Positions 4,271 through 55,957 of a DNA stretch of 64,000 nucleotides are shown here, piece by piece. The translations under genes were made by a program, and so were the position numbers. Origin of the DNA: Candidatus Shapirobacteria bacterium (GTDB lineage: Bacteria > Patescibacteriota > Microgenomatia > UBA12405); assembly GCA_016188545.1 (NCBI GenBank), contig JACPHO010000001.1:355324-419323 (forward strand), written 5' to 3'. A model generated the notes under the pieces. It saw nothing but the letters and a program-made list of their open reading frames with translations, searched no databases and had not been told where the DNA came from. The stretch's first letter is position 1, and each line of letters starts with the position of its first letter.

Positions 4271-4699
4271 TTAGGCAACAGTAAGCACTTTGCCTTCGGT
4301 TTTCGCCACCAACTCATCAAAAGTAAGTTCAAACACTGCATTATTCTTGCCGGCAGCTGCATAGATACGATCATATTTTGACAAATCAATATCAATTATT
4401 GTTATTGGTGTAACTTTGTGACCCCAAGGTGCGACACCTCCGATGACATAACCCGACATTTCTCTCACATATTCAGCATCCGCTTTGAGAATCTTTGTTC
4501 CGATCGCATTATTGATCTTAGTTTCATCAATTCTATTCACCCCTGAGGCTACCACCAAGACCGGCTTTCCTGCCTCAGTTTTGAAGACTATCGACTTCGC
4601 AATTTGGCCAATTTCGCACCCCAGAGCATCTGCCGCATCCTGAGCAGTTCTAGTCAATTTTTCAAATTCTATAACCTTAAAATTATCTGCAAAAAACAT
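4271..4699 (-). CDS. YbaK/ProX-family aminoacyl-tRNA deacylase (free-standing)
   Basis: It has the size and pattern of YbaK-type trans-editing domains (SIVFKTEAGKPVLVVASG, EMSGYVIGGVAPWG). Confidence 0.65.
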   Translation of the reverse strand: MFFADNFKVIEFEKLTRTAQDAADALGCEIGQIAKSIVFKTEAGKPVLVVASGVNRIDETKINNAIGTKILKADAEYVREMSGYVIGGVAPWGHKVTPITIIDIDLSKYDRIYAAAGKNNAVFELTFDELVAKTEGKVLTVA

Positions 4700-4784: not shown

Positions 4785-5267
4785 ATGACAAAAACAACCC
4801 CATCTCAGAGCTCTTCTTCAGACTTTCGCACCATGTTCAATCAGTTGGAAGTCCTCTTTGATGAATACTTAGGTAAAAAAGCACCCGCTTTACCAGCAAA
4901 TGTCAAAGAGCTAATAGTCAAATACTCTCCCTACATCTCTTTGGTCGTAATTATCTTCACCCTCCCAGCCATCCTGTTTGCATTAGGTCTTGGAGCACTT
5001 TTGACCCCCTTTGCTTTTATGGGTGGTGTTCGTTATGGTTTTTCCTTTTCATTTTCGACCCTATTCCTACTTGCTACACTTATTCTTGATATTGTCGCAA
5101 TTCCAGGTTTGTTTGCTCGTCAACTCTCTGGATGGAAGAAAATTTATTTAGCCACACTTCTTGGAGCTGTTCATTCATTATTGAATTTTCAGCTTGGTAA
5201 CATGGTTATCGGAACCGCGATTTCCTTGTATTTTCTTTTCCAGGTCAAAAGCTATTATAAAAATTAG
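4785..5267 (+). CDS. hypothetical integral membrane protein
   Basis: 160 aa with three or four predicted TM helices and no motif. Confidence 0.4.
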   Translation: MTKTTPSQSSSSDFRTMFNQLEVLFDEYLGKKAPALPANVKELIVKYSPYISLVVIIFTLPAILFALGLGALLTPFAFMGGVRYGFSFSFSTLFLLATLILDIVAIPGLFARQLSGWKKIYLATLLGAVHSLLNFQLGNMVIGTAISLYFLFQVKSYYKN

Positions 5268-5268
5268 C

Positions 5269-6381
5269 CTAAATCGTCCGAACACTCAATCTATTTGCCG
5301 GTCCCTGTCCAAACCAAGAGTCACCGTGTACTACCACGACAGTATCCTTAGAATGCAACAGCCCATCTTTTTTTAAGTCTGAAAATATTGGATCTTCGGT
5401 TGCGTACGCCTCAGTCAGGAAGTCTTTATAATAGGGGATTACTCCGTAAGATAGGCATAACTGGTTCAACACCTTTTTGTCGTTACTTATGGCGATTATT
5501 GGTACTCCAAGTCTATAACGCGACATCATTTTCGTCGTCGTCCCTCCTCGAGTAAAAGTTAATACCGCTTTAATAGGTTTATCCAAATCGTCCTTAGTCA
5601 TCCTGGCAGCAGATTCTGTTAATGCATCTGTTAGTGTTTTTGCACCTAAGTTTATTGTTCTAAGTTCACCTGTCGTCTCACAAAACTTGGCAATTTTAGC
5701 CATAACCATAACTGCTTCAACTGGGTGATTACCTAAAGCTGTTTCTTCTGACAACATGACGGCATCTGTCCCATCAAACACCGCATTTGCCACATCGGTT
5801 GCCTCAGCCCTAGTCGGAGTCATGTTTTTAGTCATTGAGTAGAGCATCTCAGTGGCGACAATCACTGGTATACCTGCAGTTCTAGCCGCGTCAACTATCT
5901 TTTTTTGGAAAAAAGCCAACTCTTCTATGGGAGTTTCTCTACCCAAATCACCTCGAGCTACCATTAGCCCATCGGCCACCTCAATAATATTGTTGAGTTC
6001 CGTCATCGCATAACCATTTTCGATTTTGGCTATGATCTTGGTCTCTATTTTTCGTCTCCTAAGTCGATTCTTTAGTTCAATTATGTCTTTTGCACTCTTT
6101 AGATATGACAGCGCAATGTAGTCAAAATCAGTAATCTCAACCAGAAAATCATTTCTAGGCACATCAATAATTATTCCTGCCCGAATTCCGAGTCGCTTGG
6201 CGCACCTTCTGATTTTAGCGATCTTATCGTTATGCCACTCGTTAGGGCTATATTTCATGTTAAATCTAAACATGTTGGCGCCCCCTAGTAGTAGTTTTGA
6301 GATTATTTTCTCAGTCTCAGTAGCTGGACCTATAGTCGCTACTATCTTGGTTCTTTTGTCTATTTTTTGCATTTTTTCCAT
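5269..6381 (-). CDS. pyk: pyruvate kinase (compact form, C-terminal domain reduced)
   Basis: Motifs TKIVATIGPA, MVARGDLG, PTRAE, DVANAV and MLSEETA are present. At 370 aa it is shorter than typical pyruvate kinases. Confidence 0.85.
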   Translation of the reverse strand: MEKMQKIDKRTKIVATIGPATETEKIISKLLLGGANMFRFNMKYSPNEWHNDKIAKIRRCAKRLGIRAGIIIDVPRNDFLVEITDFDYIALSYLKSAKDIIELKNRLRRRKIETKIIAKIENGYAMTELNNIIEVADGLMVARGDLGRETPIEELAFFQKKIVDAARTAGIPVIVATEMLYSMTKNMTPTRAEATDVANAVFDGTDAVMLSEETALGNHPVEAVMVMAKIAKFCETTGELRTINLGAKTLTDALTESAARMTKDDLDKPIKAVLTFTRGGTTTKMMSRYRLGVPIIAISNDKKVLNQLCLSYGVIPYYKDFLTEAYATEDPIFSDLKKDGLLHSKDTVVVVHGDSWFGQGPANRLSVRTI

Positions 6382-10855: not shown

Positions 10856-11066
10856 ATTCTGAGTGTATTATAGCTGTTTTAGAAGTTCTAAGTTACCAGA
10901 GATCAAGGCATCTTTTTTCTCTCTAGACCACCCCTTTATTTGTTTTTCCCTTCTCATAACATCAACTCTTGAAGAATATTCTTCTTTGTAAACTTTGCCC
11001 CATAAAGCGAGTGCTGTTGGTGATCAACAATTCTCAGCGAGCTCTCTAGGCGAGTCGAAAGGTTAA

Positions 11067-11189
11067 GGCTGTACGTACAAATTCGAACGTATTTTCAAAA
11101 TGGACTCTCGCCCCGCATCGCCGCGGGTGGGGGCGCGGCGAAAAAAGCGGGGCTCGATTGAACAAAACTGTCGGCTCGAAACGCAAAAA
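11067..11189 (+). repeat. mosaic GC-rich structured repeat, copy A (P1 imperfect palindrome + nested GC hairpin + tail)
   Basis: GGCTGTACGTACAAATTCGAACGTATTTT is followed by the nested hairpin GCCCCGC[ATCGCCGCG..CGCGGCGA]AAAAAGCGGGGC. The tail is CTCGATTGAACAAAACTGTCGGCTCGAAACGCAAAAA. Related copies lie at 13423..13520 and, inverted, at 16166..16280. Confidence 0.7.
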
Positions 11190-11348
11190 TTTATTCAGTA
11201 CTTAAACATTAACGTATATATCAACAAAAGTGTTACAATCGGATGAATTTGAAAAAATATGAACAAACAATACTTTTTTGTGATCATTGAATATTTATGA
11301 AAAATAGGTGATTTTTTTATCAAAACGGAAGTAGGAAGAATTATTGGA

Positions 11349-12179
11349 TTGCTTACAGGTGTGGTTGTATTTATTAAAACAATTGGTATTTGGGAAAAAT
11401 TGATCAATGTCATCAAAAATATCTTCATATTTTTGACCATAGTATTGCCATTACCATTTTTTAACATCCCTGTCTATTTTTGGATAATTTTACTTTGCGT
11501 AATTTTCTGGTTATTCAATCAATCAAGACTTTTAAAATTAGTTTCTGGAGAATTTTATGACGACTTTAGAAGTGGATTAAATAATTGGGAGTATGGCGGA
11601 GAGGGTTGGAAGACTGAATTTGAAAATGGCACCCCCTTGTTGAGTGTATCTGAGTCTCAAGATGGCGGAATAAGTAAAAAAGGGTTTAGTTGGAATGATT
11701 ATCAATTTAGTTTTAAAACTAAAATAATAAGTAAAAATTCTGGATGGATAATAAGGGCTGAAAATAGAAATAAATATATAATGATACAACTGTGGATGGA
11801 GAAATTGGACAGCCCAAAAATAAGACTACATTATAGAGTTCCTCCAAGTAGTGAAAGACAAATTCAATGGATAGTTGCGGAGGAAATAGCCATTAGTTCA
11901 GATAAAAAAATTAAGATTCTTGAGTGGGTTGACGTAAGGATAGCAGTACTGGGAAGTACTATTGATATTTATCTTAATAACCAACATTGTGCACATTACT
12001 TTATACCAGATCCAATCAGGTGGGAGAATAAATTTATAACGATTGCAGAAGAAGGAAGACCGAGTGAAAAAACATATATTGATTCCATCAATTATCCTGT
12101 GGGAAGAATCGGTTTTAGGTGCTCAGGTGGTGCAGAGCACGCACATTTTAGAGAAGTCAGAGTAAAACCGCTGCTTTGA
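11349..12179 (+). CDS. membrane-anchored DUF1080/LamG-like (3-keto-disaccharide hydrolase-like) domain protein; TTG start
   Basis: Two N-terminal TM helices are followed by a domain with a GWK..FENG pattern. The C-terminus GRIGFRCSGGAEHAHFREVRVKPLL resembles the DUF1080 C-terminal G.IaLQ.H....FRNI.IK.L signature. Confidence 0.45.
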   Translation: MLTGVVVFIKTIGIWEKLINVIKNIFIFLTIVLPLPFFNIPVYFWIILLCVIFWLFNQSRLLKLVSGEFYDDFRSGLNNWEYGGEGWKTEFENGTPLLSVSESQDGGISKKGFSWNDYQFSFKTKIISKNSGWIIRAENRNKYIMIQLWMEKLDSPKIRLHYRVPPSSERQIQWIVAEEIAISSDKKIKILEWVDVRIAVLGSTIDIYLNNQHCAHYFIPDPIRWENKFITIAEEGRPSEKTYIDSINYPVGRIGFRCSGGAEHAHFREVRVKPLL

Positions 12180-12203
12180 GATTTAGGTAACAGGTTTAAT
12201 TCG

Positions 12204-12253
12204 ATTGTTTTCGTCTTTGTAGACTCATCAGTCCCGCAATTCGGGATAACAAT
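12204..12253 (-). ncRNA. hammerhead ribozyme motif, type III (HHR-3)
   Basis: Minus-strand RNA, 5' to 3': AUUGUU-A-UCCCG[AAUUG]CGGGA-CUGAUGA-GUCU[ACAA]AGAC-GAAA-ACAAU. Conserved core nucleotides CUGAUGA, GAAA, U16.1 and H17 are all present. Stems I and II are closed and stem III is open. Confidence 0.7.
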
Positions 12254-12277
12254 TTCCTCTTGGCACAACCAACGCTT

Positions 12278-12297
12278 GGGTCCCCTTGAGGGGACCC
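12278..12297 (-). other. perfect 8-bp GC hairpin between the stop codon and HHR-3 (module hairpin)
   Basis: GGGTCCCC-TTGA-GGGGACCC. No U-run follows on the minus strand, so it is not a terminator. It lies 40 nt 3' of the stop of gene 12338..12976. Confidence 0.6.
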
Positions 12298-12337
12298 ACT
12301 CGTCGTTTTTTTTGTTGTGCCTTGAGGGCGATAGGAA

Positions 12338-12976
12338 TTACTGCACAATGATGGTGACTGTAATCGTTTCTGTTGTTGCAAGATTGACATAATCTTCGCC
12401 AGTTACGATAATCGTGAATGTCTGCCCAACAGCATCTGCGGGTGCATTTGCTTTCAGTAATCCCGATTGAGCAGCATAGAAATCATCTGAGGTAATCCAA
12501 CTCGGAAGGTTTGAGTATTCGTAATGACCATTCCCATTGGGGATGTTTGAACCGATGGATATCCAAGATTCTTGTCCAGCACTCACGACAGCTGTAGCGG
12601 TTAAGTCATAGTGCACTGTGTGAGGTATTTCAACTGTGTACACCAGAGTGATAACTTCATCACCTGATATGGAGGTTGCCTCGCAGGTGAATTCGCCTTC
12701 AACATCAGCAGAAGGGTATGAATCAATTGTTTGACTACCCAATGTCAGCCATGAGGGGCAGTCGGAAGACAAATTGTAGCCACCTGTAGTTGCAAATCCA
12801 GCAACTTTCAAATCCAGTGACTTGCCGAGACCTGCGGCAACTCTGATGTATTGAGTGCTGGTGATAACTGAGGCAGTGTCTTGGGGGGTGCTTGTGGCGG
12901 AAGGCGCGCAAGCAGTCATGATAATCGTCATGGCTACGAATGCAAAGAGCAGGGAACGTACGGTATTGCGGGACAT
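12338..12976 (-). CDS. secreted lipoprotein with tandem Ig-like/beta-rich repeats; visibly GC-richer than surroundings
   Basis: There is a signal peptide with a lipobox-like IMTAC. Repeated SWLT/SWIT segments are present. The likely start is the internal ATG at 12976 (MSRNTVRS). Its base composition is atypical for this window. Confidence 0.5.
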   Translation of the reverse strand: MSRNTVRSLLFAFVAMTIIMTACAPSATSTPQDTASVITSTQYIRVAAGLGKSLDLKVAGFATTGGYNLSSDCPSWLTLGSQTIDSYPSADVEGEFTCEATSISGDEVITLVYTVEIPHTVHYDLTATAVVSAGQESWISIGSNIPNGNGHYEYSNLPSWITSDDFYAAQSGLLKANAPADAVGQTFTIIVTGEDYVNLATTETITVTIIVQ

Positions 12977-13238
12977 GGCTTCTCCTTTTGAAGTCGAACA
13001 AAATTGTGGGAAATACTTGGACTCTTTATTAGAAAACAACCGAGTTGTTTTTACTAATTAAAAAGCCCAAATACTTGCTTAAATCGCCATTCCTATCCTA
13101 ATTATTAAAGTGCATCTGAACAGAAAATACATAGCTAATATGTAAACCTATTCGTCCATATTTTAACATAACTAGACATAAAAAACAATGTTATAAGATA
13201 TATAGAATATTTTCTTAATCGCGAGCGTAAAAATAATT

Positions 13239-13260
13239 GCGATGATTTATCAATCATCGC
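13239..13260. promoter_or_regulatory. perfect 9-bp inverted repeat GCGATGATT-TATC-AATCATCGC (operator-like or hairpin)
   Basis: Seen directly. It is intergenic, upstream of repeat copy B. Confidence 0.3.
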
Positions 13261-13332
13261 CAAAACCGTCGGCTCGAACTACTTTTTATTGGATAAAACC
13301 ATACTCCCAAAATATCAAAATGACGGATTCTT

Positions 13333-13520
13333 GGCGCTGGCCAATCCTGTGCGCCTGTCCGCCTCTGGCGGAGGCGTGGCCTGCGCCATGGCAAAAATCA
13401 TGCGATTTGCAAAAACTGTTGAGGCTGTACGTACAAATTCGAACGTATTTTAAGAAATTATAACAGTCGCCCCGCTCGTCCCGTCGCCGGTCGGGACGAA
13501 AAACGCGGGGCTCGATTGAA
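13333..13520 (+). repeat. mosaic GC-rich structured repeat, copy B (P3 long hairpin + CGATTTGCAAAAACTGTT linker + P1 + nested GC hairpin variant 2)
   Basis: P3 is TGGCGCTGGCCAATCCTGTGCGCCTGTCCGCCTCTGGCGGAGGCGTGGCCTGCGCCA at 13333-13390. P1 is at 13423-13451. The hairpin GCCCCGC[TCGTCCCG..CGGGACGA]AAAACGCGGGGC is at 13466-13520. Confidence 0.7.
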
Positions 13521-13580
13521 AATTATTTTTTGCGCGCGCGATTTTAAGAATTGTTGGAACTATTAAGATATAATCAAAAC

Positions 13581-14726
13581 ATGAAGTTGACCTCAAATCT
13601 CATCAAATATTACCTGTGGCAATTCATTTCTGGTTTTTATTTTATCTACACTCTCCAAGCACTGTATTTACTTAGTAAGGGTATTACACCGACACAATTA
13701 GCTCTATTTGCCAGTGTCACGGCCATTTCGTCAACTGCTCTCGAAATCCCCACCGGATTTATTGCAGACAAATTTTCTCGAAAATTATCCGTATCACTTG
13801 GGTTTTTTTGTAGTGGCTTGGCATATCTTGGTTTTATATTTATCACTAATTTTTATGGATTATTGATAATTTCGTTTTTACTGGGACTAGCAGAAGCTCT
13901 AAAAAGCGGTGCCGAGGAATCATTAATTTACGATGATTTAAAATCATTAAACCAAGAATCAGATTATTTGAAAGTCACATCAAAGGGAACAACTATCGGT
14001 ACAGTCTCGGGAGCAGTGGCCACATTTTTAGGGCCGATACTTTTTGTAATTCACGCCACAATTCCATTTATTTTAAGTTCCATAACTCACTTATTGCTCG
14101 GTGTGTTAATTCTTAGTTTTACTGAATCTAGAAATTCATCCGAAGTTAAGGAAGAAGTAAAAGTAATGGGAGGAGTAATGGCAATCTTAAAAAACAAATA
14201 TGTTCGCTTGATTGTCTTGATGGATACAATTTTACTTGTTTTTGTAAATATCTATTATCAGGTTTTATTTTTTCCAAAGATTAATGGTTTGGGTTTAGAT
14301 GTTCAGTATTTAGGAACTTTAGATGTAATCAATATCGTCTTAATGTCGGGGATGTTTATTATTTTGCCACGGTTAGTATTAAAGAATGAGAAAAACAATT
14401 TAGTCCTTTACACCATGTTGCCGGTATTATTTTTCATTTTGTTTGGACTTAGTAACAAGCTAATACCAGCCTTAATTTTTGGTGTAGTTTTTGATTTAGT
14501 TTGGTCAGCCAGAAAGCACATTTTACCTACAATTACCAACCGACATTTCAATTCCAGTGACCGCGCATTAAGTATTTCTAGTATGAGTTTTATTAGCAAT
14601 CTCTGCGCGGCAATATTTGTCCCAATTGCTCTAATCTTGTTTAATGTAAGTTATTATTACACTTTAATACCGGCAGTCTTTATTATATTTCTACTTTATA
14701 TTTACCCCAAGAATCAAAACTCATAA
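13581..14726 (+). CDS. MFS-family transporter
   Basis: About 12 TM segments. An MFS motif-A-like sequence, EIPTGFIADKFSRK, lies between TM2 and TM3. Likely start is the ATG at 13581. Confidence 0.6.
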   Translation: MKLTSNLIKYYLWQFISGFYFIYTLQALYLLSKGITPTQLALFASVTAISSTALEIPTGFIADKFSRKLSVSLGFFCSGLAYLGFIFITNFYGLLIISFLLGLAEALKSGAEESLIYDDLKSLNQESDYLKVTSKGTTIGTVSGAVATFLGPILFVIHATIPFILSSITHLLLGVLILSFTESRNSSEVKEEVKVMGGVMAILKNKYVRLIVLMDTILLVFVNIYYQVLFFPKINGLGLDVQYLGTLDVINIVLMSGMFIILPRLVLKNEKNNLVLYTMLPVLFFILFGLSNKLIPALIFGVVFDLVWSARKHILPTITNRHFNSSDRALSISSMSFISNLCAAIFVPIALILFNVSYYYTLIPAVFIIFLLYIYPKNQNS

Positions 14727-14750
14727 ACAATATCGTGTTTCGAGTCTGGT

Positions 14751-15497
14751 TTATTTCCAATTAGGGTAGTCAATAATTTGTAGGAATTCTTGATATACCA
14801 CCCTTAGTTCTTTTGATATGTTAATTAGGTCATCTCGTTTTGCAATGAATCTTCGATTGTGTGCGCTCAAATCTCCAAACCTCTTAATTTCTTTAAGGCC
14901 ACTTTTGCAATTCCGACTTAAGTTAAAACTAGCCTCAGCTACAGCAAGTCGAATCAAATCCTCAAGATAATAAAAGTCACCTTGAGAATTTTTAATTTTG
15001 GTCGACAAATTGTTCTTCTCGAATGTCTCAATTATTAATGTTTCTAACAACCTGCGCAACATTACGTTACATGCATCATATAAACCATTATCAAAACAGG
15101 CGATAGCTTGATATGCCACTTTTTCAATATAGCCACGAGTATTTTCAAACAAACTTATTGGAAGTAAATTATTTGATACCTCAGGCGTGGTTGGATTTTT
15201 AAGATATTTCTCTTCTATTAGTTTCTGTCCAAATGGGGTTAAGAAGTACATTCCTGATTTCACGAAAAATCTTGCCGTCTTCTTGACATTTCTCTTAGCG
15301 TTTATTTTTAGATACTGTGGGATGTTGGAGTATGACGGCAAATTCAATTCATCAAAACAAGCTACAACATCCGAAGATCTCACGCCAGGCTTATTTTGCT
15401 CTTTTAGTAAAAAATATACAAAACAATCTACCTGCGACGACAATCCGATATCGTTATGGTCGAAAATGCTTTTAGTAAAACTTTTCAGGTCTAACAT
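14751..15497 (-). CDS. HEPN/DUF4145-like domain protein with N-terminal winged-helix-like domain (candidate toxin or abortive-infection effector)
   Basis: The C-terminal motif EIKRFGDLSAHNRRF carries an R-x6-H spacing with G(D/N)..AH, as in DUF4145/HEPN. The preceding RRLLETLI helix fits the family pattern. It starts 5 nt after the stop of 15503..16078. Confidence 0.5.
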   Translation of the reverse strand: MLDLKSFTKSIFDHNDIGLSSQVDCFVYFLLKEQNKPGVRSSDVVACFDELNLPSYSNIPQYLKINAKRNVKKTARFFVKSGMYFLTPFGQKLIEEKYLKNPTTPEVSNNLLPISLFENTRGYIEKVAYQAIACFDNGLYDACNVMLRRLLETLIIETFEKNNLSTKIKNSQGDFYYLEDLIRLAVAEASFNLSRNCKSGLKEIKRFGDLSAHNRRFIAKRDDLINISKELRVVYQEFLQIIDYPNWK

Positions 15498-15502
15498 TTA
15501 AG

Positions 15503-16078
15503 TTATTGATTTTTATCAGCAACCACTTTTGATTTTTTCGTTTTCTTTTTCGGTAATTTCGCAGTACCACTATCCCTTGAAATTATTTCTAAAGCTTTCC
15601 TTTTTCCATCATCGGTGACGACATATTCTGCTCCATTTAGTTGGCTGAGCCATTTATTTTTAACTACATTGTTAAGTGATGCGGATAGATTTTTAATTTT
15701 ACTTGGTGTCTTTCTCCTTGACTCCGCATACTTATCAATTATTTCTTTTCTGGTTAAAGTATCTTTGCCTTCCTTTGTTATATAAAACGCATATATCAAA
15801 ACCCATTCAGTTTCACCTTGTGGTTTATTTTGTCTTGCCAAATCAAACAACGTCATTGTTCCCACTTCCGATACAACCTCACTAACAGTGTCCGTAGAAA
15901 TTGGCTTTGTTACTGGATTAAAAGATATTGGTTTTTCATTTTTGACTGCATATACATCGGCAATTTTACCAATACCATCCTGTTTTATTTGATTGAATTG
16001 ACTAATAACTTCACTAGAATCTCCCTCAAGTTCTACCTTAAAGTCACCAACAGAAACATTTATTTTTAAGTTTCCCAT
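15503..16078 (-). CDS. hypothetical partner protein of the HEPN-like gene; shares a winged-helix-like domain with it; lysine-rich C-terminal tail
   Basis: The segment QNKPQGETEWVLIYAF...NVVKNKWLSQLNGAEYVVTDDGKRKALEII aligns with the downstream protein's EQNKPGVRSSDVVACF...NAKRNVKKTARFFVKSGMYFLTPFGQKLIEE. The tail is KKKTKKSK. Confidence 0.45.
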   Translation of the reverse strand: MGNLKINVSVGDFKVELEGDSSEVISQFNQIKQDGIGKIADVYAVKNEKPISFNPVTKPISTDTVSEVVSEVGTMTLFDLARQNKPQGETEWVLIYAFYITKEGKDTLTRKEIIDKYAESRRKTPSKIKNLSASLNNVVKNKWLSQLNGAEYVVTDDGKRKALEIISRDSGTAKLPKKKTKKSKVVADKNQ

Positions 16079-16165
16079 ATAAGTAATAACATATAATTAA
16101 TATGACTATATCATACGACTGTTACAAATGCCATACGACATCATATCTTCAAATCATTTAAAAAT

Positions 16166-16280
16166 TTTTGCGTTTCGAGCCGACAGTTTTGTTCAATCGA
16201 GCCCCGCGTTTTTCGTCCCGACCGGCGACGGGACGAGCGGGGCGATGTTAAAATATTTGAAATACAGTTCGAATTTTTCG
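16166..16280 (-). repeat. mosaic GC-rich structured repeat, copy C (inverted orientation)
   Basis: Its reverse complement reads P1-like AATTCGAACTGTATTT, then hairpin variant 2 (identical to copy B), then GGGGCTCGATTGAACAAAACTGTCGGCTCGAAACGCAAAAA (tail identical to copy A). Confidence 0.7.
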
Positions 16281-16322
16281 GTACAATGCCGACAATTCGT
16301 GAATGTCATGATTTTTTGATGT

Positions 16323-16381
16323 GGCGCTGGCCAATTCTGTGCGCCTGTCCGCCTATGGCGGAGGCGTGGCCTGCGCCACAT
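16323..16381 (+). repeat. P3 long GC hairpin element, second copy, abutting tRNA-Gln
   Basis: TGGCGCTGGCCAATTCTGTGCGCCTGTCCGCCTATGGCGGAGGCGTGGCCTGCGCCA. It differs from the 13333-13390 copy at only two positions, both in predicted unpaired regions. The same CGATTTGCAAAAACTGTT linker follows. Confidence 0.7.
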
Positions 16382-16407
16382 CAAAATCTTTCGATTTGCA
16401 AAAACTG

Positions 16408-16478
16408 TTACCCCGCATGGATTCGAACCACAATCACGAAGTTCAGAGCTTCGTGTCCTACCATTAGACGACGGGGTA
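16408..16478 (-). tRNA. tRNA-Gln (anticodon CUG)
   Basis: Reverse complement: TACCCCG-TC-GTCTAATGGTAGGAC-A-CGAAG-CTCTGAA-CTTCG-TGAT-TGTGG-TTCGAAT-CCATG-CGGGGTA-A. The cloverleaf has a 7-bp acceptor stem and a TTCGAAT T-loop. Confidence 0.85.
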
Positions 16479-16854: not shown

Positions 16855-17455
16855 TATCTTCTTCCCCGTGTCCAGGTAGAACTATAACCTCTCCCGGTAA
16901 TTTAATAAGCTCTCTTAAACTTTTTCGTAAATCAGACATCGAGGAATAGTTATGATCAGTACTTCCTATCCCACCCTCCGCAAACAGGGTATCCCCGCTA
17001 AACAATAATTTACCACTGGTATCATAAAAACAAACCCCACCAGGCGTATGACCGGGGGTTTTCAGTACCTTCAGCTTCTCCTCCCCAAGTAATATGTTTT
17101 TTGCGTTACTCAGGTCAACATCTGTCTCAGCTATGTCTAGCGTGTCTACTCTATGTTTCAAAAAATGTTCTGCTGTTTCTTTTTGTCGCTTAAGTAAAAA
17201 CATGTCGAGTTTGCTTACTCCGATAGGAATGTTGTACATCAATTTTAAGTCCATAGCTGCCAACAAGTGGTCAAAGTGCCCGTGTGTCGCCAGTATCATT
17301 AGTAGCTTCAATTGGAGCCTCTGAACCTCATCGCTAATCTCAGTCGCAGCATCAGCCGGGTCAATAATTACTCCTTCTTTTGTTTCATCATCCCAGACTA
17401 TATAACAGTTGGTTTCTAGTTCACCCAAGACCAACTTTTCGTATTTCAACATCAT
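16817..17455 (-). CDS. MBL-fold metallo-hydrolase (glyoxalase II-like)
   Basis: The HxHxDH motif ATHGHFDH is present, with downstream His/Asp ligands. Confidence 0.75.
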   Translation of the reverse strand: MMLKYEKLVLGELETNCYIVWDDETKEGVIIDPADAATEISDEVQRLQLKLLMILATHGHFDHLLAAMDLKLMYNIPIGVSKLDMFLLKRQKETAEHFLKHRVDTLDIAETDVDLSNAKNILLGEEKLKVLKTPGHTPGGVCFYDTSGKLLFSGDTLFAEGGIGSTDHNYSSMSDLRKSLRELIKLPGEVIVLPGHGEEDTILNSSRRLGSL

Positions 17456-17504
17456 TATATTTTACTTTTTATTTTTTATTTTTGAATTTTTGATATACTT
17501 CACT

Positions 17505-18098
17505 ATGCCTTCGCCAAATATTGACCCAACTGTTCGACTTTTTATTGGTGGCCTTCCTTACCGTTTTACGGAAGGGGAGTTACTTACTCTCTTCGCTCCC
17601 TTCGGGCGAGTCGTTTCACTTAAAATAATGCACACCCCTTGGGGTAAAAGCCGAGGTATGGGATTTGTTGAGTTTGATAACGTTGATTCTGCCATCAAAG
17701 CCAAGCAAAGTCTTCACAATCATCGAGTCTCTGAAGAGAGAACTATTATTGTCGACTTTGCCGCTCCAGACCCAGCCACTACTGAAGAAGGTCGCTTGCG
17801 TCGAGAGCAGGTCCAGAGTCGCAAACCCCTCCGTCGTCAATTTTCAAATGTAAGTAATACTAGTATAAGTCCTAAGGATCCATTTACTCGTCAAAATCGT
17901 GGTACCAACAAATCAGATTCAGGTCGTCGACCATATAGCCCCAAGACATCCGAGGGTACAGACTCAGAAAAACCCCGCAAATTCGGCAATTTCAAGCGTG
18001 GAAAAAGTGCTTTTGGAAACAACCGTCAATCGGTATTTGATTCTCGGTCCCATCATTCCCGAGTCGGTGCCAAGTTTGCCAACCGACAAAAGAACTGA
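17505..18098 (+). CDS. RRM-domain RNA-binding protein with R/S/G-rich disordered tail
   Basis: RNP-2 LFIGGL and RNP-1 RGMGFVEF are present. Start moved to the ATG at 17505 (MPSPNID) to avoid overlap with the divergent MBL gene. Confidence 0.8.
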   Translation: MPSPNIDPTVRLFIGGLPYRFTEGELLTLFAPFGRVVSLKIMHTPWGKSRGMGFVEFDNVDSAIKAKQSLHNHRVSEERTIIVDFAAPDPATTEEGRLRREQVQSRKPLRRQFSNVSNTSISPKDPFTRQNRGTNKSDSGRRPYSPKTSEGTDSEKPRKFGNFKRGKSAFGNNRQSVFDSRSHHSRVGAKFANRQKN

Positions 18099-26231: not shown

Positions 26232-26291
26232 AATGATTTCGTCCTCCGAATCGAAGGACTCATCAGGCCCGATACCTATCGGACAATCATT
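26232..26291 (-). ncRNA. hammerhead ribozyme motif, type III (HHR-1)
   Basis: Minus-strand RNA: AAUGAU-U-GUCCGAU[AGGU]AUCGGGC-CUGAUGA-GUCCUUCG[AUU]CGGAGGAC-GAAA-UCAUU. All invariant core nucleotides are present. Stem III is a 6-bp AAUGAU/AUCAUU duplex. Confidence 0.75.
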
Positions 26292-26308
26292 CACTAAGCA
26301 CACCGCGG

Positions 26309-26333
26309 CTGGCAGGGGATAAACCCCTGCCAG
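26309..26333 (-). other. perfect 10-bp GC hairpin between the stop codon and HHR-1 (module hairpin)
   Basis: CTGGCAGGGG-ATAAA-CCCCTGCCAG. It lies 30 nt 3' of the stop at 26363 and is not followed by a U-run. Confidence 0.6.
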
Positions 26334-26362
26334 TAGCATGTGCGCTCAGCGCTTTGGATAGG

Positions 26363-27085
26363 TTATTGGTAAGGAGTTGCGCAGAATACCGCATTTTCGT
26401 GATCAGTATGTTCATCTCTGTCAAACTCGTAGTAGTTATCCCACTTCTGCGAGGCGACATTAATATATGGACTTTCAATCGTTATTACTGGCATTGGGAT
26501 TGCCATTTCGTTTGAATAACCAACTTGGTCATCGAACAGCATCCATCTGGCGTCGTTTACGTATAAAAGGCTTCCTTTGGCTTCACGCGTGTTCGTGTCA
26601 GTATGCATAACAATACTATTATCGTAGCAAGTCAAGCTTCGTTGATTTGTTTCAGGAGCTGTTCTAGGCAAAGCATCAAAGTAGGCATAAACCTCAGTCA
26701 CGACTGTTTCTTTGTGCTCGGCAAACGCCCAGATCGTCATCCTATACAAGCCTGACTTTCCAGTCGTCCATTCAAAAACATCGAAATCCCCCGGTTGAAT
26801 CTCAAAATGGCCATAGTCTTCATCCATCCACATTACACTTCTCCAGGTAATTCTCTGGGGGTTGACGTTTTCTTCAGATTTATCAATTCCATCTCCTTCA
26901 GGTGCAAAGTCGATTTTTGCATAATAAAGAAGGGGGTCCTCGGATGAATTTGGATGGATAGTTGCTTTGCAAGTTTTGCGGTCACAGATTATCTTTGCAT
27001 TTGCAGGCATTGCTTTCCCACATGCTGAAAGAAACAACCCAATTGTTGCAAAGAACAATACAGCTAACAGTTTTCTTGTTTTCAT
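26363..27085 (-). CDS. secreted hypothetical lipoprotein
   Basis: The signal peptide MKTRKLLAVLFFATIGLFLSACG has a lipobox-like LSAC. No known domain. Confidence 0.45.
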   Translation of the reverse strand: MKTRKLLAVLFFATIGLFLSACGKAMPANAKIICDRKTCKATIHPNSSEDPLLYYAKIDFAPEGDGIDKSEENVNPQRITWRSVMWMDEDYGHFEIQPGDFDVFEWTTGKSGLYRMTIWAFAEHKETVVTEVYAYFDALPRTAPETNQRSLTCYDNSIVMHTDTNTREAKGSLLYVNDARWMLFDDQVGYSNEMAIPMPVITIESPYINVASQKWDNYYEFDRDEHTDHENAVFCATPYQ

Positions 27086-27441: not shown

Positions 27442-27585
27442 CTCACATTCTCCTTTTTGTATATTTTTAGACACACGGTCAATTCCCCTTTTGGGGTAAC
27501 TGACTAGTGTGTCTAAAACTTTTTCCTATCCAAATTTTTAAAGAACTAAACCTACTTCAACACGCAATGTATTGAGTTAGTTGCA

Positions 27586-27646
27586 AATGATTTCGTTCTT
27601 CAAATCAATGAAGAAGCTCATCAGTCCGCCTTGGGCGGAAATCATT
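27586..27646 (-). ncRNA. hammerhead ribozyme motif, type III (HHR-2)
   Basis: Minus-strand RNA: AAUGAU-U-UCCGCC[CAA]GGCGGA-CUGAUGA-G(C)UUCUUC[AUUGAUUU]GAAGAAC-GAAA-UCAUU. The core and stem III match HHR-1. Stems I and II differ but remain paired. Confidence 0.75.
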
Positions 27647-27666
27647 CACGGCATACAATCGCAGGT

Positions 27667-27708: not shown

Positions 27709-28200
27709 TTACGGAGTTTCGATAATGGAGTTGACACAGTATAGTGTTTCATCTTGATAGAAACGGCAGTCCGCCAATTTTTCAACCTTGTATCCTGTAA
27801 ATTCCGATATCCAACCGGATGTATTATCGTCTTGCGTTGCAACTTCCCGCATCCAAACTTCTTCTCCATACAGAAGATAAACAATATGAACTCCGTCTGG
27901 ACTCCAGAAGAATTCAGTCACAGAGGTGACTATTAGGACCAAACCACCTGGAATTGTAGGATTGACTTGCAACACCGAAACCCCTGTTTCAAGGTTTTTA
28001 AGTATAAATGCTTCCTGTCCTTTAGTCGAAAACTTACTTTCCCCATGTTGATAAATCAACTTTGGTGCTTCGGTGGCTACAGGCATTGCAGTAGGGCTGA
28101 TTGCTGGCCGATGATCGCCATTATTTATGGTCGATGCAAGTAATGCAACTGCGAGACCCAAAACAATGTGCCACCATTTTAAACCTAGTCGAGTTTTCAT
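27709..28200 (-). CDS. secreted hypothetical protein
   Basis: Signal peptide MKTRLGLKWWHIVLGLAVALLAS. No known domain. Confidence 0.45.
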   Translation of the reverse strand: MKTRLGLKWWHIVLGLAVALLASTINNGDHRPAISPTAMPVATEAPKLIYQHGESKFSTKGQEAFILKNLETGVSVLQVNPTIPGGLVLIVTSVTEFFWSPDGVHIVYLLYGEEVWMREVATQDDNTSGWISEFTGYKVEKLADCRFYQDETLYCVNSIIETP

Positions 28201-28968: not shown

Positions 28969-29319
28969 TTATGACTTAAGTTTATTTACAATAGAACTTA
29001 AAATTAGGCTTACTTCTTTGGTTTCTTGATATAAATTTGCTGATTTCACCCTTAGCTTTGGCTCAGCCTCAATTAGCATTATTATCCAATATAGGGTTTC
29101 TCGAGCTTCTTTTCTCGCAATACCAACTTTGTGTATAAAATCATTTTTACTTTCTGAATTATTGGCTTCACAATAATTTGCCCCAATACTAGTACCTGCA
29201 CGAATAAATTGACTGATCAGTGGCAAAGTAATCGTATTTTTGGGCACCAACTTTGCGAAACATATGACTTGCTTACCCAAACTTTCCAGTCTCTCAATAA
29301 GATCAAATTTTGTTGCCAC
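28969..29319 (-). CDS. four-helix-bundle protein (23S rRNA intervening-sequence protein family)
   Basis: The pattern IGANYCEA...KEARETLYWI is characteristic of this family. Confidence 0.65.
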   Translation of the reverse strand: MATKFDLIERLESLGKQVICFAKLVPKNTITLPLISQFIRAGTSIGANYCEANNSESKNDFIHKVGIARKEARETLYWIIMLIEAEPKLRVKSANLYQETKEVSLILSSIVNKLKS

Positions 29320-34683: not shown

Positions 34684-37005
34684 TTACATTTTTTCCAGTG
34701 TCCCAATTCCCAAAATATTTAGGCCATCCCTAATAATTTTTGCAGTTACAGCCGTCAAAAACACTCGCCGTCCCTCCTGAGGATCCCCAATAACTCTACA
34801 CTTCCCATAAAACTCATTATATTTTCTAGCCAAATTTAGTAAATATTCCGCCAACACCGCCGGGTTATATCTTTCACCAGCCTCGACAATCTTTTCCTTA
34901 AAAATATAAAAATATCGCAGCAGGGGAGTCTCATTCTCATCAAACCCTTCGCTTGTTTTGATGTTTGATGTTTGATGTTTGGATTTTAATATAACACTCT
35001 TACATCTGGCATAAGTGTATTGTAGATATGGTGAAGAATTTCCCTCCATGCTCATAACCCTATCCCAGTCAAAAACGATATCCTTTTTAGGGTCAGATGA
35101 CAAATCATTAAATTTCACCGCTCCTATAGCTACTTTTGCAATCGACACATTATCATTTTCAGGAGCGATACTTTTTGCCATATCCATGGCTTTATCAATT
35201 ATATCTGATAAATGGATAGTGTCACCTTTGCGAGTTGAAAATTTTCCGTCTTTCCAGCGAATCAAACCGTGGCCAATGTGGACAAAATTTGCCTCCCAGC
35301 CTACTAGTTTAGCCGCCGCGAATACTTGCTTAAAGTGCAATGTCTGCTCTGAGCCAACCTCATAAATAATCAAATCCGGGTTCCATTTTTCTTTTCTAAA
35401 TTTAATCGTTGCCAAATCTCGAGTAAAATATGTCGTCGCCCCATCCGATTTTAATATCATTGCCGGTGGTAAATTTGGCACTTCCACTATCTCTGCGCCA
35501 GCACTTATTTTACTCAATTTTTTATCCCTAAAAATCTGCTCGATTTCTGACAACATTTTTAAATAGAACTCCTCACCATAAGCATTATCAATTTTTACGC
35601 CCAACATTTCATAGACCCTGTTAAATTCTTTAATGGATATATCGATACATTCTCGCCAAATTTTTCGTGCCTCAACATCACCCTTTTCTAGCTTGGCAAA
35701 CCAGTCTCTACCCTCATCAATTAATGTTTTATCATTTTCTGACTCAGCGTGAAATCTGACATAAAGCTTTTCTAGTCCTTCTATTGTGCTTTCCATTCCC
35801 CAATGTTTTATCGCTGTTATCATTTTTCCAAATTGTGTACCCCAATCACCCAAGTGATTATCGCCAATTGTATTCCAACCCAACACTTTGTAAATGTTAT
35901 ACAAAGCATGTCCAATATTGGTTGACCTTAGGTGGCCTATCCCAAAAGGCTTCGCGATATTTGGTGATGAATATTCAACAATTACTGTTTTTCCTTTTCC
36001 GATGTTTTCTAATTCGTTTTTATACATATCACTCAAAATATAATTTGATTCATCAATCAGTACACTTTCTTTTATCCACAAGTTGCTAAATCCAGCTACA
36101 GTATCAACTCTTTCAATAACATCTAAATCGGAAAAATTAGCTATACCCCTTACTGCATAATCCCCAAATTTTTCCACTGCTGGGTGTTCAACTGGCATCT
36201 TTGCCACATCAAATATTTGTTTGGCAATGCCATAATATTTCTTTGCGTTAACAATCTTCTTTTTTTTACTTTCAATAATATCCTCAACTTTTTTTGATAC
36301 AAAATCAATTTCGACCGTAGGGTTATCCTTATCCAGCCACAATATCTCGAATGTTCCCCCAAACAATCCCTTAACTTTTTGTACAAATTCATTAGCTATT
36401 TTTTTTATCAAATCATCATTTATCCCCCTAAACCCATCCATCACGAAGTAACCGTTAGTCGACTCGCTCGTGAGTTTTGTGCGCTCACATTGTCGCCAGT
36501 TCAGCGCTCTAGTTGACAGGTCCAGTCCGTCACCCCACACTAGTTCACCTTCCACTGCCGATTTACTTTTTATTGCTCCAATTGGAAACCATTTTTCTCC
36601 ACCTTTGGCAATAAACAATCTAAAATTCCCATATACTTTGTCCAAGTCCTCACCTCCAAACGGAATAATATTGGTGATACTATACGAATTGTATAAATTT
36701 ACCATCGGGTTAATATCCGGAATCAGTCCGCCTTCCAAAACCCTTTTTGATAGTGCTACATGAGCCGGTGCAAAAACTTTTGGGTCAGTTCCAAATTCAC
36801 TGAAACACTTTTCGTAAGCTGTTACTTTTTCTAACTCAAAAAAACTTTCGCTGGTGTGTTGTTTTTTAAGACTTTCCTCGGCACTTCTCAAGAGTTCGAC
36901 TGATTTTTCAACTGACTGGTGGTTGTCAAATCCATAAATAATCGGTATCGCTACTACTAGGTTCGGAAACTTTTCAAAAACACTATTATCAATTTCAAAT
37001 TTCAT
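34684..37005 (-). CDS. argS: arginine--tRNA ligase with an N-terminal B3/4-like domain extension of about 230 aa
   Basis: The ArgRS core has SSPNIAKPFGIGHLRS (HIGH-type) and the Add-1 N-domain. Residues 1-230 resemble the PheT B3/4 editing or tRNA-binding fold (PMVNLYNSYSITNIIPFGGEDLDKV, ALNWRQCERTKL). Confidence 0.8.
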   Translation of the reverse strand: MKFEIDNSVFEKFPNLVVAIPIIYGFDNHQSVEKSVELLRSAEESLKKQHTSESFFELEKVTAYEKCFSEFGTDPKVFAPAHVALSKRVLEGGLIPDINPMVNLYNSYSITNIIPFGGEDLDKVYGNFRLFIAKGGEKWFPIGAIKSKSAVEGELVWGDGLDLSTRALNWRQCERTKLTSESTNGYFVMDGFRGINDDLIKKIANEFVQKVKGLFGGTFEILWLDKDNPTVEIDFVSKKVEDIIESKKKKIVNAKKYYGIAKQIFDVAKMPVEHPAVEKFGDYAVRGIANFSDLDVIERVDTVAGFSNLWIKESVLIDESNYILSDMYKNELENIGKGKTVIVEYSSPNIAKPFGIGHLRSTNIGHALYNIYKVLGWNTIGDNHLGDWGTQFGKMITAIKHWGMESTIEGLEKLYVRFHAESENDKTLIDEGRDWFAKLEKGDVEARKIWRECIDISIKEFNRVYEMLGVKIDNAYGEEFYLKMLSEIEQIFRDKKLSKISAGAEIVEVPNLPPAMILKSDGATTYFTRDLATIKFRKEKWNPDLIIYEVGSEQTLHFKQVFAAAKLVGWEANFVHIGHGLIRWKDGKFSTRKGDTIHLSDIIDKAMDMAKSIAPENDNVSIAKVAIGAVKFNDLSSDPKKDIVFDWDRVMSMEGNSSPYLQYTYARCKSVILKSKHQTSNIKTSEGFDENETPLLRYFYIFKEKIVEAGERYNPAVLAEYLLNLARKYNEFYGKCRVIGDPQEGRRVFLTAVTAKIIRDGLNILGIGTLEKM

Positions 37006-37020
37006 ACTTAATATTAAACC

Positions 37021-37064
37021 AAAAACCCCGCCTTTGGGATTAAATAATTAATCACAAGGACGGG
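37021..37064 (-). terminator. intrinsic terminator-like hairpin plus U-run in the argS leader (attenuator candidate)
   Basis: Minus-strand RNA CCCGUC-[loop with GAUUAA/UUAAUC sub-hairpin]-GGCGGG-G-UUUUU. It lies 16 nt before the argS ATG. Confidence 0.4.
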
Positions 37065-37092
37065 ATTTATCTGCCGGTAGGTAGATTTCTCT

Positions 37093-37104
37093 CGTGGTAC
37101 CACC
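37093..37104 (-). promoter_or_regulatory. T-box-like sequence in the argS leader
   Basis: Minus-strand AAAGGUGGUACCACG compares with the T-box consensus AGGGUGGNACCGCG. The UGGU would pair with a tRNA ACCA 3' end. Confidence 0.3.
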
Positions 37105-37261
37105 TTTATTTTTCTCTTTTGAGTTTGTACGGTTCACTCCGTTTCCGATTTTGCGGAAGACTCCACCTTCGCGACAGGCTTCGTTGTCTTTGGAAATTAT
37201 ATACTATTCATTGTCATCTGGGTAGAATCTAACTAATCTCCACACGAAACACACCTAATAG

Positions 37262-55493: not shown

Positions 55494-55584
55494 TCGGCAA
55501 AAACCCCAAATTTTTAGTATTACCGAAACCGATCATTTTTTCTGTTGTTTTTATAAACATATTATTAATAAATAATAAACTTAG

Positions 55585-55656
55585 TACGGAGGAGGGGAGT
55601 TGAACCCCTATAAAACTGTTTTACAGACAGTTGCATTACCGGCCTGCCCCCTCCGT
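55585..55656 (-). tRNA. tRNA-Tyr (anticodon GUA), short variable arm
   Basis: Reverse complement: ACGGAGG-GG-GCAGGCCGGTAATGCA-ACTGT-CTGTAAA-ACAGT-TTTAT-AGGGG-TTCAACT-CCCCT-CCTCCGT. The 7-bp acceptor stem is perfect. The D-stem is short. Confidence 0.7.
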
Positions 55657-55660
55657 AGAA

Positions 55661-55717
55661 CCAAAAAAGCCCTCGCCTTTGCAAAACCAATAAATGGCTT
55701 CACAAGGGTGAGGGCTT
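55661..55717 (-). terminator. intrinsic terminator on the minus strand, immediately 5' of tRNA-Tyr
   Basis: The 11-bp stem CCGUGAGAAGCCCUCACC...GGCGAGGGCUU (one G-U) is followed by UUUUUUGG on the minus strand. Confidence 0.5.
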
Positions 55718-55957
55718 CTCACGGTACCACCTTGTTTCGTAAATAAAAAAAGCTCCCACAGGAGCTCGATAATTATTTACCTTATTATCGAGTACTTGTT
55801 TACCTCGCCTCTGGCGGACTTGCAGTGATACTCTAGCTCTATTTAGGGAGCTCCCTTACCGATTTTGTCGGTATGCTCAGAGGGTGTATTATGTCCTCCT
55901 TAACGCGTTCCAAACTTAGTCAAGTTTATCACGAGGAAATTTCTTGTCAAGAATATA

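Follow-up and report, generated by a model that had tools for sequence, protein, structure and literature searches.

The window analysed here, a 64,000-nt stretch of a Candidatus Shapirobacteria bacterium genome, is ordinary chromosome that encodes malic enzyme, Dus, Obg, Era, MscL, an ABC transporter and ArgRS. Within a strain-specific insert next to tRNA-Gln, two genes converge, a lipoprotein gene on the minus strand and a gene of the 3-keto-disaccharide hydrolase family on the plus strand, and the gap between their 3' ends holds a hammerhead ribozyme motif, HHR-3, preceded by a short leader and a long hairpin (Table 1). The stop codon of the lipoprotein gene precedes HHR-3 by 84 nt. Because the hydrolase gene is convergent and its stop codon lies so close to the motif, any minus-strand transcript that reads through HHR-3 would be antisense to it.

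The insert is absent from the closest relative at this locus (L013, with a Dus protein 92% identical to that of the window), where 5 nt separate the end of the orf10544 homologue from a tRNA-Gln with 100% identity to that of the window. These 5 nt correspond to 5,548 nt in the window (10859-16406), which bears out the proposal of the initial annotation that the motif sits in a tRNA-Gln island. A repeat of about 100-150 nt occurs in the insert at 11062-11209, 13418-13547 and 16145-16285 (inverted), and 88 nt of the sequence flanking the tRNA on its 3' side occur twice, as a second repeat pair (13332-13420 and 16322-16409). The lipoprotein gene had been described as atypically high in GC; its GC content is indeed raised, but only moderately: it is 46.9%, where the window as a whole has 39.8% and the gene's neighbours in the island have 33-34%. 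Its product matches no Pfam or NCBIfam family, and the two open reading frames that overlap HHR-3 (12196-12390 and 12092-12268) have no Pfam family match.

Table 1. Features of the HHR-3 locus and hammerhead copies in the window and at related loci
Feature	Position	Strand	Remarks
Strain-specific 5.5-kb insert holding HHR-3	10859..16406	.	between orf10544 and tRNA-Gln
Convergent gene, 3-keto-disaccharide hydrolase family	11349..12179	+	stop codon 24 nt from HHR-3 3' end
HHR-3, predicted type III hammerhead	12204..12253	-	sequence, Rfam RF00008, descriptor, covariation with 7 relatives
HHR-3 stem III, 5' strand	12253-12248	-	
HHR-3 H17	A12247	-	predicted cleavage between 12247 and 12246
HHR-3 stem I and loop	12246-12232	-	
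HHR-3 core CUGAUGA	12231-12225	-	
HHR-3 stem II and loop	12224-12213	-	
HHR-3 core GAA	12212-12210	-	
HHR-3 stem III, 3' strand	12209-12204	-	
Long imperfect hairpin, 26 bp	12256..12327	-	directly 5' of HHR-3; from folds
Leader UUCCUAUCG	12329..12337	-	between stop codon and hairpin; complementary to GGAUAGGAA at 13090-13098
Upstream lipoprotein gene, HYV64_02270	12338..12976	-	212 aa, lipobox MTAC
GGAUAGGAA motif, putative cassette 5' end	13090..13098	-	114 nt upstream of start codon, past an AT-rich stretch
HHR-1, sister copy	26232..26291	-	3' of lipoprotein gene 26363-27085; leader CCUAUCC, hairpin 26292-26352
HHR-2, sister copy	27583..27649	-	one-base bulge in stem II; 3' of membrane-anchored protein gene 27709-28200; upstream hairpin
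Hammerhead copy, L002	6165-6222		related locus
Hammerhead copy, L002	5065-5159		52-nt stem II; Rfam 32.8 bits
Hammerhead copy, L003	12226-12286		related locus
Hammerhead copy, L020	14231-14298		related locus

Sequence, fold and Rfam score of HHR-3

Read on the minus strand, the 50 bases of HHR-3 are AUUGUU-A-UCCCG[AAUUG]CGGGA-CUGAUGA-GUCU[ACAA]AGAC-GAA-AACAAU, with the loops in brackets, and this sequence agrees exactly with that first written down for the motif. All of the roughly 15 conserved core positions are intact (C3 U4 G5 A6 U7 G8 A9, G12 A13 A14, and H17, which is A and not G); G10.1-C11.1 closes stem II, and A15.1 (12209) pairs with U16.1 (12248). Stems I, II and III comprise 5, 4 and 6 bp, every one of the 15 pairs being canonical, and the topology is that of type III, in which stems I and II are capped by loops and stem III is open.

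A permissive scan with the Rfam model RF00008 (Hammerhead_3, clan CL00010) matched 12203-12254 on the minus strand at 31.4 bits with all 54 model positions aligned, the E-value being 4.4e-5 for a 301-nt search and 0.0093 for the entire window. The only indel relative to the model is in loop II, which is 4 nt shorter; the 5 bp of stem I and the 4 bp of stem II are the Rfam type III consensus, so that the term "minimal version", used for the motif at the outset, is overstated. The score lies below the RF00008 gathering score of 48.5 bits, a threshold that is a property of the model and not a biochemical criterion, and it does so because of the shorter loop II and of stem sequences that depart from the consensus rather than because of any mismatch in the core. 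With default settings, the Rfam scan of the window returned three tRNAs only. All eight copies of the family described below are likewise under the gathering score or undetected, and are therefore missed by standard annotation.

Chance is excluded as the source of the motif. The loose pattern CTGATGA-N(8-38)-GAAA occurs 9 times in the window compared with 2.1 expected, and three of the nine matches, those at 12209, 26237 and 27591 of the minus strand, have a self-complementary stem II. A type III descriptor, which specified the core, an NUH site and stems I, II and III of at least 4, 3 and 4, matched the window at 12204-12253 and 26232-26291 and none of 300 dinucleotide shuffles; a bulge-tolerant form additionally found 27583-27649. 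When the relaxed descriptor was applied to 1.05 Mb (the window and related loci), it returned seven copies, with none in three shuffled copies of the same sequence, and the scan of this 1.05 Mb found hammerheads of type III only, with no type I or type II. Descriptor matches in L018 and L019 were rejected: a U-A pair replaces G10.1-C11.1, the "stems" are loose over 40 nt, and the matches run antisense within an RRM gene.

Some properties of HHR-3 call for caution. Its stems are the shortest in the set of eight copies, and stem III, with 17% GC and -2.1 kcal/mol as a duplex, is also the weakest. For the 50-mer, the predicted minimum-free-energy structure is not the hammerhead (-10.7 kcal/mol) but a competing fold of -12.3 kcal/mol that pairs the 5' strand of stem III with CUGAUGA; the exact hammerhead fold accounts for about 3.5% of the ensemble. 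The UUA cleavage triplet is among the slower NUH sites in the literature on minimal hammerheads. Full-length natural hammerheads, which are fast, have a tertiary contact between loops or bulges of stems I and II. In HHR-3, loops I and II can pair over 3 bp (UUG:CAA), which weakly suggests a pseudoknot; five of the eight copies show complementarity of this type (P about 0.015), but the L102 orthologue does not.

Relatives of HHR-3 and covariation of the stems

The family comprises eight related type III copies, of which the window has three, its relatives have four and contig L102 has one; the loci of the relatives had been retrieved through Obg for genomes and through Dus alignment for metagenomes. 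HHR-1 and HHR-2, the two further hammerheads that the initial annotation had reported, are both present in the window. The copies in L002, L003 and L020 lie on the same strand relative to conserved genes and share a single variable gap, between era (orf29371 in the window) and mscL/ytxH, which in the window contains HHR-1 and HHR-2 and which is empty in L005, L006, L007, L015 and L090. Rfam detected no hammerhead in the seven close relatives that lack descriptor matches. L003 carries an orthologue of HHR-1, with compensatory changes, behind a gene whose product is 35% identical.

Across the eight copies the core is invariant and compensatory substitutions occur in all three stems. Six copies were placed in an N-padded structural alignment. 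Its core columns show no variation, the pairs next to the core are all canonical, and 18 of the 25 pairs show changes on both sides, compared with 8.8±1.8 in shuffles and 2-4 when the pairing partners were slid; as the copies were picked and aligned by their fold, the 100% pairing is partly circular, whereas the diversity of pair types is not. A MAFFT alignment of the same six sequences, in which stems III and I were misaligned, was dropped. The covariation of stem III relative to HHR-1 and HHR-2, which had been noted from the first, holds good, with A-U versus U-A double changes at 15.2-16.2 and 15.5-16.5.

A further comparison comes from the lipoprotein gene itself. A word-indexed protein search gave no homologue for the product of this gene or of the HHR-1 gene. 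An exhaustive HMMER search found a full-length relative of the lipoprotein with 41% identity (P0040, contig L102), together with a few weaker ones. Downstream of the P0040 gene lie, in the same order, a leader (CUAUCUAUCC), a long hairpin and, at 1423-1473, a hammerhead of the form UUCUU-U-UACGGAU[GUGU]GUCCGUA-CUGAUGA-GCCC[AAAA]GGGC-GAA-AAGAA, which scores 35.3 bits with Rfam (E=2e-4) and has the same 4-nt deletion in loop II. In the closest homologue, the hammerhead has thus been kept along with the gene. Nucleotide-level alignment of the two loci is possible only in the core, and all three stems have compensatory changes: C-G to G-C in stem III, C-G to A-U and C-G to G-C in stem I, and U-A to C-G twice in stem II. 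The L102 ribozyme also shares the short stem II of 4 bp with a 4-nt loop, which argues that the compact form is conserved and not degenerate.

Among the other lipoprotein homologues, L107 (P0044) may be compared only in part: the same leader and hairpin base are present and the contig ends at the hairpin; in the more distant homologues of L103-L106, the 3' UTRs are different and contain no hammerhead. The idea that HHR-3 is part of the convergent hydrolase gene was rejected, since homologues of that gene with 69-52% identity (L097-L101) have no hammerhead, and this, with the retention of the ribozyme in L102, assigns HHR-3 to the lipoprotein cassette.

Judged by all the sequence and structure features tested, with the Rfam gathering score as the one exception, HHR-3 is a genuine hammerhead of type III and adds a member to a ribozyme class already known; it is predicted to cleave itself. 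The identification proposed originally is thereby supported, through eight copies with an invariant core and covarying stems; catalysis and biological function are inferred.

The leader, hairpin and hammerhead module

The eight copies are built alike: an open reading frame for an exported protein is followed, in most of them, by a short leader that contains CUAUCC, and then by a long hairpin and the hammerhead. The proteins are of 149-243 aa, and each has a signal peptide, a transmembrane segment or a lipobox. They are mostly unrelated to one another, the sole related pair being that of HHR-1 and L003 (35% identity). The hammerheads are always in the sense orientation and lie 59-84 nt past the stop codon (128 nt in L102). 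Leaders related to that of HHR-3 precede HHR-1, both L002 copies and the copies in L003 and L102, and also occur in L107.

An equivalent hairpin stands 5' of the hammerhead in eight of eight cases, with the ribozyme following within 0-10 nt and none of the hairpins followed by a U-tract or reported by the terminator scan. The predicted 5' cleavage products would end in hairpins of 22-29 bp (-34 to -46 kcal/mol) with unpaired tails of 2-10 nt; for HHR-3, the 3' region of this product folds at -45 kcal/mol. Throughout the set, stem III is poorer in GC than stem I (17-33% versus 42-83%). On the minus strand, the hairpin at 12256-12327 lacks the U-tract that directly follows the GC-rich stem-loop of an intrinsic (Rho-independent) terminator, and the terminator scan does not report it; on the plus strand, eight U residues follow its apical part and could terminate the convergent hydrolase gene. 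A canonical U-tract terminator is found downstream of the L002 copy at 5065, and because the lineage uses such terminators, the U-less hairpins of the module appear to be a different kind of element.

Scans for sigma-70 promoters and terminators gave results at the level of shuffles and were uninformative. The G-U asymmetry of the hairpins, taken as a guide to the strand on which they act, was mixed, with four of six favouring the sense strand. The hairpin base was discarded as a candidate dispersed repeat, as GTGTGCTTAG with up to 2 mismatches occurs at chance level. With up to 1 mismatch, GGATAGGAA is not enriched across the window, and only its exact copies are informative.

The modules are found only in strain-variable gene cassettes that are present or absent between close relatives, at two insertion hotspots. 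The open reading frames are flanked by inverted motifs, GGAUAGGAA and UUCCUAUCC, the L102 pair being GGAUAGA/UCUAUCC. Exact GGAUAGGAA has nine sites in 2.1 Mb of strand sequence, seven of them in the regions of hammerhead cassettes. Adjoining the GGAUAGGAA motif of the HHR-3 cassette, the stretch 13017-13071 shares 84% identity with the 5' region of L003's hammerhead cassette.

Possible roles of the module

The explanation that we lean towards places HHR-3 at the end of a conserved 3'-UTR module that would act as a maker of 3' ends and as an insulator for a horizontally exchanged cassette. In Shapirobacteria-like CPR bacteria, this module is attached to small exported-protein genes that lie in variable cassettes. 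Transcription of the lipoprotein gene would pass the hairpin, which, as it has no U-tract, probably does not stop the transcript, and would continue through the ribozyme. HHR-3 would then cut between A12247 and U12246, so that the mRNA upstream of the cut has a terminal 2',3'-cyclic phosphate and extends 9 nt beyond a hairpin of about -45 kcal/mol. This hairpin should block 3' exonucleases acting on the lipoprotein mRNA, and the weak, AU-rich stem III (6 bp, 17% GC) may let the two cleavage products come apart. The RNA downstream of the cut, whose sequence is antisense to the convergent hydrolase gene, would begin with a 5'-OH and would be discarded. On this explanation, HHR-3 would be an element that selection maintains.

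Two other ribozyme systems offer parallels. RiboJ is an engineered insulator in which a type III-like hammerhead and a flanking hairpin uncouple neighbouring transcription units; it is placed in the 5' UTR and its hairpin comes after the ribozyme, whereas the hairpin of HHR-3 is upstream and the module lies in the 3' UTR. The degradation of the 5'-OH product of the glmS ribozyme in the RNase J1 pathway is a precedent for the fate of an mRNA being set by the chemistry of a new end (PMC6765202), although glmS is a metabolite-dependent 5'-UTR element with a different fold, and no ligand dependence is suggested for HHR-3.

Some observations weigh against a 3'-end maker. The Rfam score of HHR-3 is below the gathering threshold, its hammerhead has to compete with a more stable predicted fold, stem III is weak and the triplet is UUA; the more distant homologues in L103-L106 do without a hammerhead, and the loop contact is missing in L102. 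The hairpin might also terminate transcription by itself, leaving little RNA to cleave.

An alternative is that HHR-3 is a decaying or very slow copy, brought in by a horizontally acquired cassette and without a role at this locus, the family itself being real. The weakest stem III (-2.1 kcal/mol), the shortest stems, the suboptimal UUA and the competing minimum-free-energy fold all agree with decay, as does the position in a strain-specific island; apart from antisense RNA, moreover, nothing on the minus strand downstream requires insulation. Set against this are the intact core and the canonical state of all 15 stem pairs, the equally compact form of the L102 orthologue, and the in vitro cleavage of designed 54-nt type III hammerheads, which are similar in size to HHR-3 (PMC4191386). 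We consider this alternative unlikely.

A further alternative is that the module serves the mobility or exchange of the cassettes and not the formation of mRNA 3' ends. In an RNA version, cleavage at successive hammerheads would release unit-length RNAs with 5'-OH and 2',3'-cyclic phosphate ends, and these RNAs would be ligated or copied in the manner of retrozymes; in a DNA version, the leader, the hairpin and GGAUAGGAA would be recombination sites, and the ribozyme would mark the boundary of the cassette. Much about the distribution of the modules invites such a reading: all copies are in present/absent cassettes at the two hotspots, one 3' module is joined to unrelated open reading frames between the inverted GGAUAGGAA and UUCCUAUCC motifs, homology to relatives breaks at or beside the ribozyme, and the 5' region of the HHR-3 cassette recurs, at 84% identity, in a cassette at a different locus of L003. 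In addition, HHR-2 and HHR-1, in the same orientation, bracket a two-gene unit of 1.36 kb, and Perreault et al. raised the possibility of circular or spliced products, yet did not detect circular ones (PMC3088659). The machinery expected for mobility is not apparent, however. Pfam and NCBIfam scans of the cassette neighbours revealed no reverse transcriptase, integrase, transposase or phage family; upstream of the lipoprotein gene there is no ribozyme that could act as a partner to HHR-3; repeats of 9 bp are short for a recombinase site; and nothing comparable turned up on viral contigs, where no copy of HHR-3 was found and the four pattern matches, all due to chance, had no stems. Taken together, these points make a role in mobility quite doubtful.

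A related and comparably improbable reading takes the leader, hairpin and hammerhead as the 3' boundary of an undescribed kind of exchangeable surface-protein cassette in CPR bacteria, with GGAUAGGAA at its 5' end and UUCCUAUCC at its 3' end. Such a cassette would start with the AT-rich stretch and GGAUAGGAA and end with the complementary UUCCUAUCC, the long hairpin and the ribozyme, and its product might be an mRNA with pairable ends or a unit-length RNA that aids the movement of the cassette.

Finally, the hairpin alone could be functional, as a bidirectional terminator or stability element between the convergent genes, with a fortuitous hammerhead-like sequence beside it; the plus-strand U8, which could terminate the hydrolase gene, and the sub-threshold Rfam score are in keeping with this, but the comparative data make it very unlikely, there being zero matches in shuffles, seven more copies with the same core (among them L102, behind a homologous gene), and hairpin plus ribozyme at HHR-1 and HHR-2, where there is neither a convergent gene nor a U- or A-tract.

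Hammerheads of the RF00008 type are known from viroids, satellite RNAs, plant retrozymes and some bacteria (RF00008, clan CL00010). HHR-3 has their catalytic core unchanged, the open stem III, the capped stems I and II and the consensus lengths of stems I and II, and differs in its loop II, shorter by 4 nt, and in its stem sequences. Unlike the hammerheads of replicating circular RNAs and retroelements, the copies are chromosomal and single, and would lie in the 3' UTRs of bacterial mRNAs. The bacterial clusters described by Perreault et al. in 2011 are similar in that a few kb contain several ribozymes, which lie on either side of one gene or of a short block of genes that vary in identity; those clusters are near integrases or prophages and often of type II, whereas here all copies are of type III and there is no phage context (PMC3088659). 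Every copy in the present set follows an open reading frame for an exported protein and is preceded by a long hairpin, and the host is a CPR bacterium, which sets it further apart from those clusters.

The production of gene-length mRNAs from longer transcripts was proposed for bacterial hammerheads by Perreault et al. in 2011, and their function is still unproven (PMC3088659); reviews suggest the processing of mRNAs or 3' UTRs for hammerheads and twisters in bacteria (PMC3088659, PMC6765202), and ribozymes have also been suggested to process polycistronic transcripts (PMC6765202). The twisters in bacterial 3' UTRs resemble HHR-3 in being self-cleaving RNAs that follow a coding region, and have been proposed to determine how stable the transcript is; they belong to another ribozyme class, and no hairpin-plus-ribozyme module or association with cassettes is described for them (PMC6765202). 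Our literature search found no report of hammerhead ribozymes in Patescibacteria/CPR and no earlier description of the present setting, a 3' module of hairpin and hammerhead behind exported-protein cassettes, which we take to be undescribed.

Hundreds of bacterial hammerheads are known, and their roles have been called "largely elusive" (PMC6765202). The set of eight copies reported here is one that curated Rfam thresholds miss, and its uniform context turns a vague notion of mRNA processing into a concrete hypothesis, in which 3' ends made by a ribozyme and protected by a hairpin would insulate acquired genes. Should the cassette-boundary reading be true, hammerheads would have a defined role in the expression or spread of hypervariable cell-surface genes in episymbiotic bacteria. 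The lineage thus offers a clean and testable setting for the role of bacterial hammerheads.

Complementary motifs and possible recombination in the hammerhead cassettes

On the 5' flank of the cassettes, an AT-rich TTTAAAAATTT-like stretch is followed by an exact GGAUAGGAA motif, which recurs a short distance downstream from two of the hammerheads. The motif and the UUCCUAUCC leader located after the cassette stop codon have complementary sequences. Exact copies number nine in 2.1 Mb of strand sequence, with 8/9 being intergenic and 7/9 falling in hammerhead cassette regions. In the related hammerhead-bearing locus L102 the pair takes the form GGAUAGA/UCUAUCC. Such a pair could reflect pairing between the 5' and 3' ends of the mRNA, a promoter-proximal signal, or an inverted repeat at the DNA level.

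The two modules of a second related locus, L002, have a near-identical leader, hairpin and 5' strand of stem III (...GGGAGCCCUUUAUUGGGCUCCCAACGGAGGUGUGUUUAGUUGAUUGUA) in common, while their stems I and II differ completely. This combination of a shared and a wholly different part suggests gene conversion or recombination inside the module, with its breakpoint at the cleavage site.

Features of the cassettes and their surroundings (window positions unless a related locus is named)
Feature	Location	Strand
GGAUAGGAA with leader, HHR-3 cassette	13090-13098 with 12329-12337	-
GGAUAGGAA with leader, HHR-2/HHR-1 region	27523-27531 with 26356-26362	-
Motif with leader, L002	7824 and 6113 with 6293 and 5229	
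Motif, L003 (related hammerhead locus)	13690	
Motif with leader, L102	533 with 1369	
Leader and hairpin part, two L002 hammerhead modules	5160-5229 and 6223-6293	-
GC-rich repeat, tRNA-Gln island	11062-11209, 13418-13547, 16145-16285 (inverted)	
GC-rich repeat, L015 (relative's genome)	4273-4403	
88-nt direct repeats	13332-13420 and 16322-16409	
Further long hairpin	27465-27510	-
PF05635 gene	28969-29319	-
T-box-leader-like match	55701-55912	-
tRNA-Tyr gene	55584-55656	-
418-aa ORF	54237-55493	-
Second T-box-like match	37053-37193	-
ArgRS gene	34684-37005	-
RRM_1 protein gene	17409-18098	+

Repeats and other elements at the insertion sites

Three copies of a GC-rich, hairpin-forming repeat (~100-150 nt) occur in the tRNA-Gln island, flanking a 2.36-kb segment that carries HHR-3 together with the genes for the lipoprotein and the hydrolase. 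The repeat is also present in a relative's genome and possibly represents a REP-like or other small mobile element. The MFS/DUF4145/orf15503 segment is enclosed by 88-nt direct repeats (92% identical) that copy the sequence immediately 3' of tRNA-Gln, a layout that a single att-like site would be expected to acquire through successive insertions; scanning the window genes for protein families showed no integrase for this segment.

The era-mscL hotspot of HHR-1 and HHR-2 also holds one more long hairpin, UUUAGACACAC...GUGUGUCUAAA, which has CCCC/GGGG at its apex. It is located between the next gene's start and the GGAUAGGAA downstream of HHR-2, and would lie in the 5' UTR of that next gene. Another gene in the same hotspot encodes a 23S rRNA-intervening-sequence protein (PF05635, whose fold is that of the Avd accessory proteins of DGRs); no reverse transcriptase was seen near it.

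Other RNA-related features of the window

Directly upstream of a tRNA-Tyr gene is a match resembling a T-box leader, which scores 45.3 bits and so falls short of the 93-bit cut-off. The tRNA gene is followed by a 418-aa ORF not recognisable as TyrRS because it has no Pfam family. A T-box preceding a tRNA gene is odd for a CPR genome. A second, weaker match precedes an ArgRS with an N-terminal B3_4 domain.

Adjoining Dus, and kept in all Shapirobacteria-like relatives compared, is a gene whose 229-aa product contains an RNA-recognition motif of eukaryote type (RRM_1); this protein is a possible candidate for an RNA-binding partner in this ribozyme-bearing lineage.
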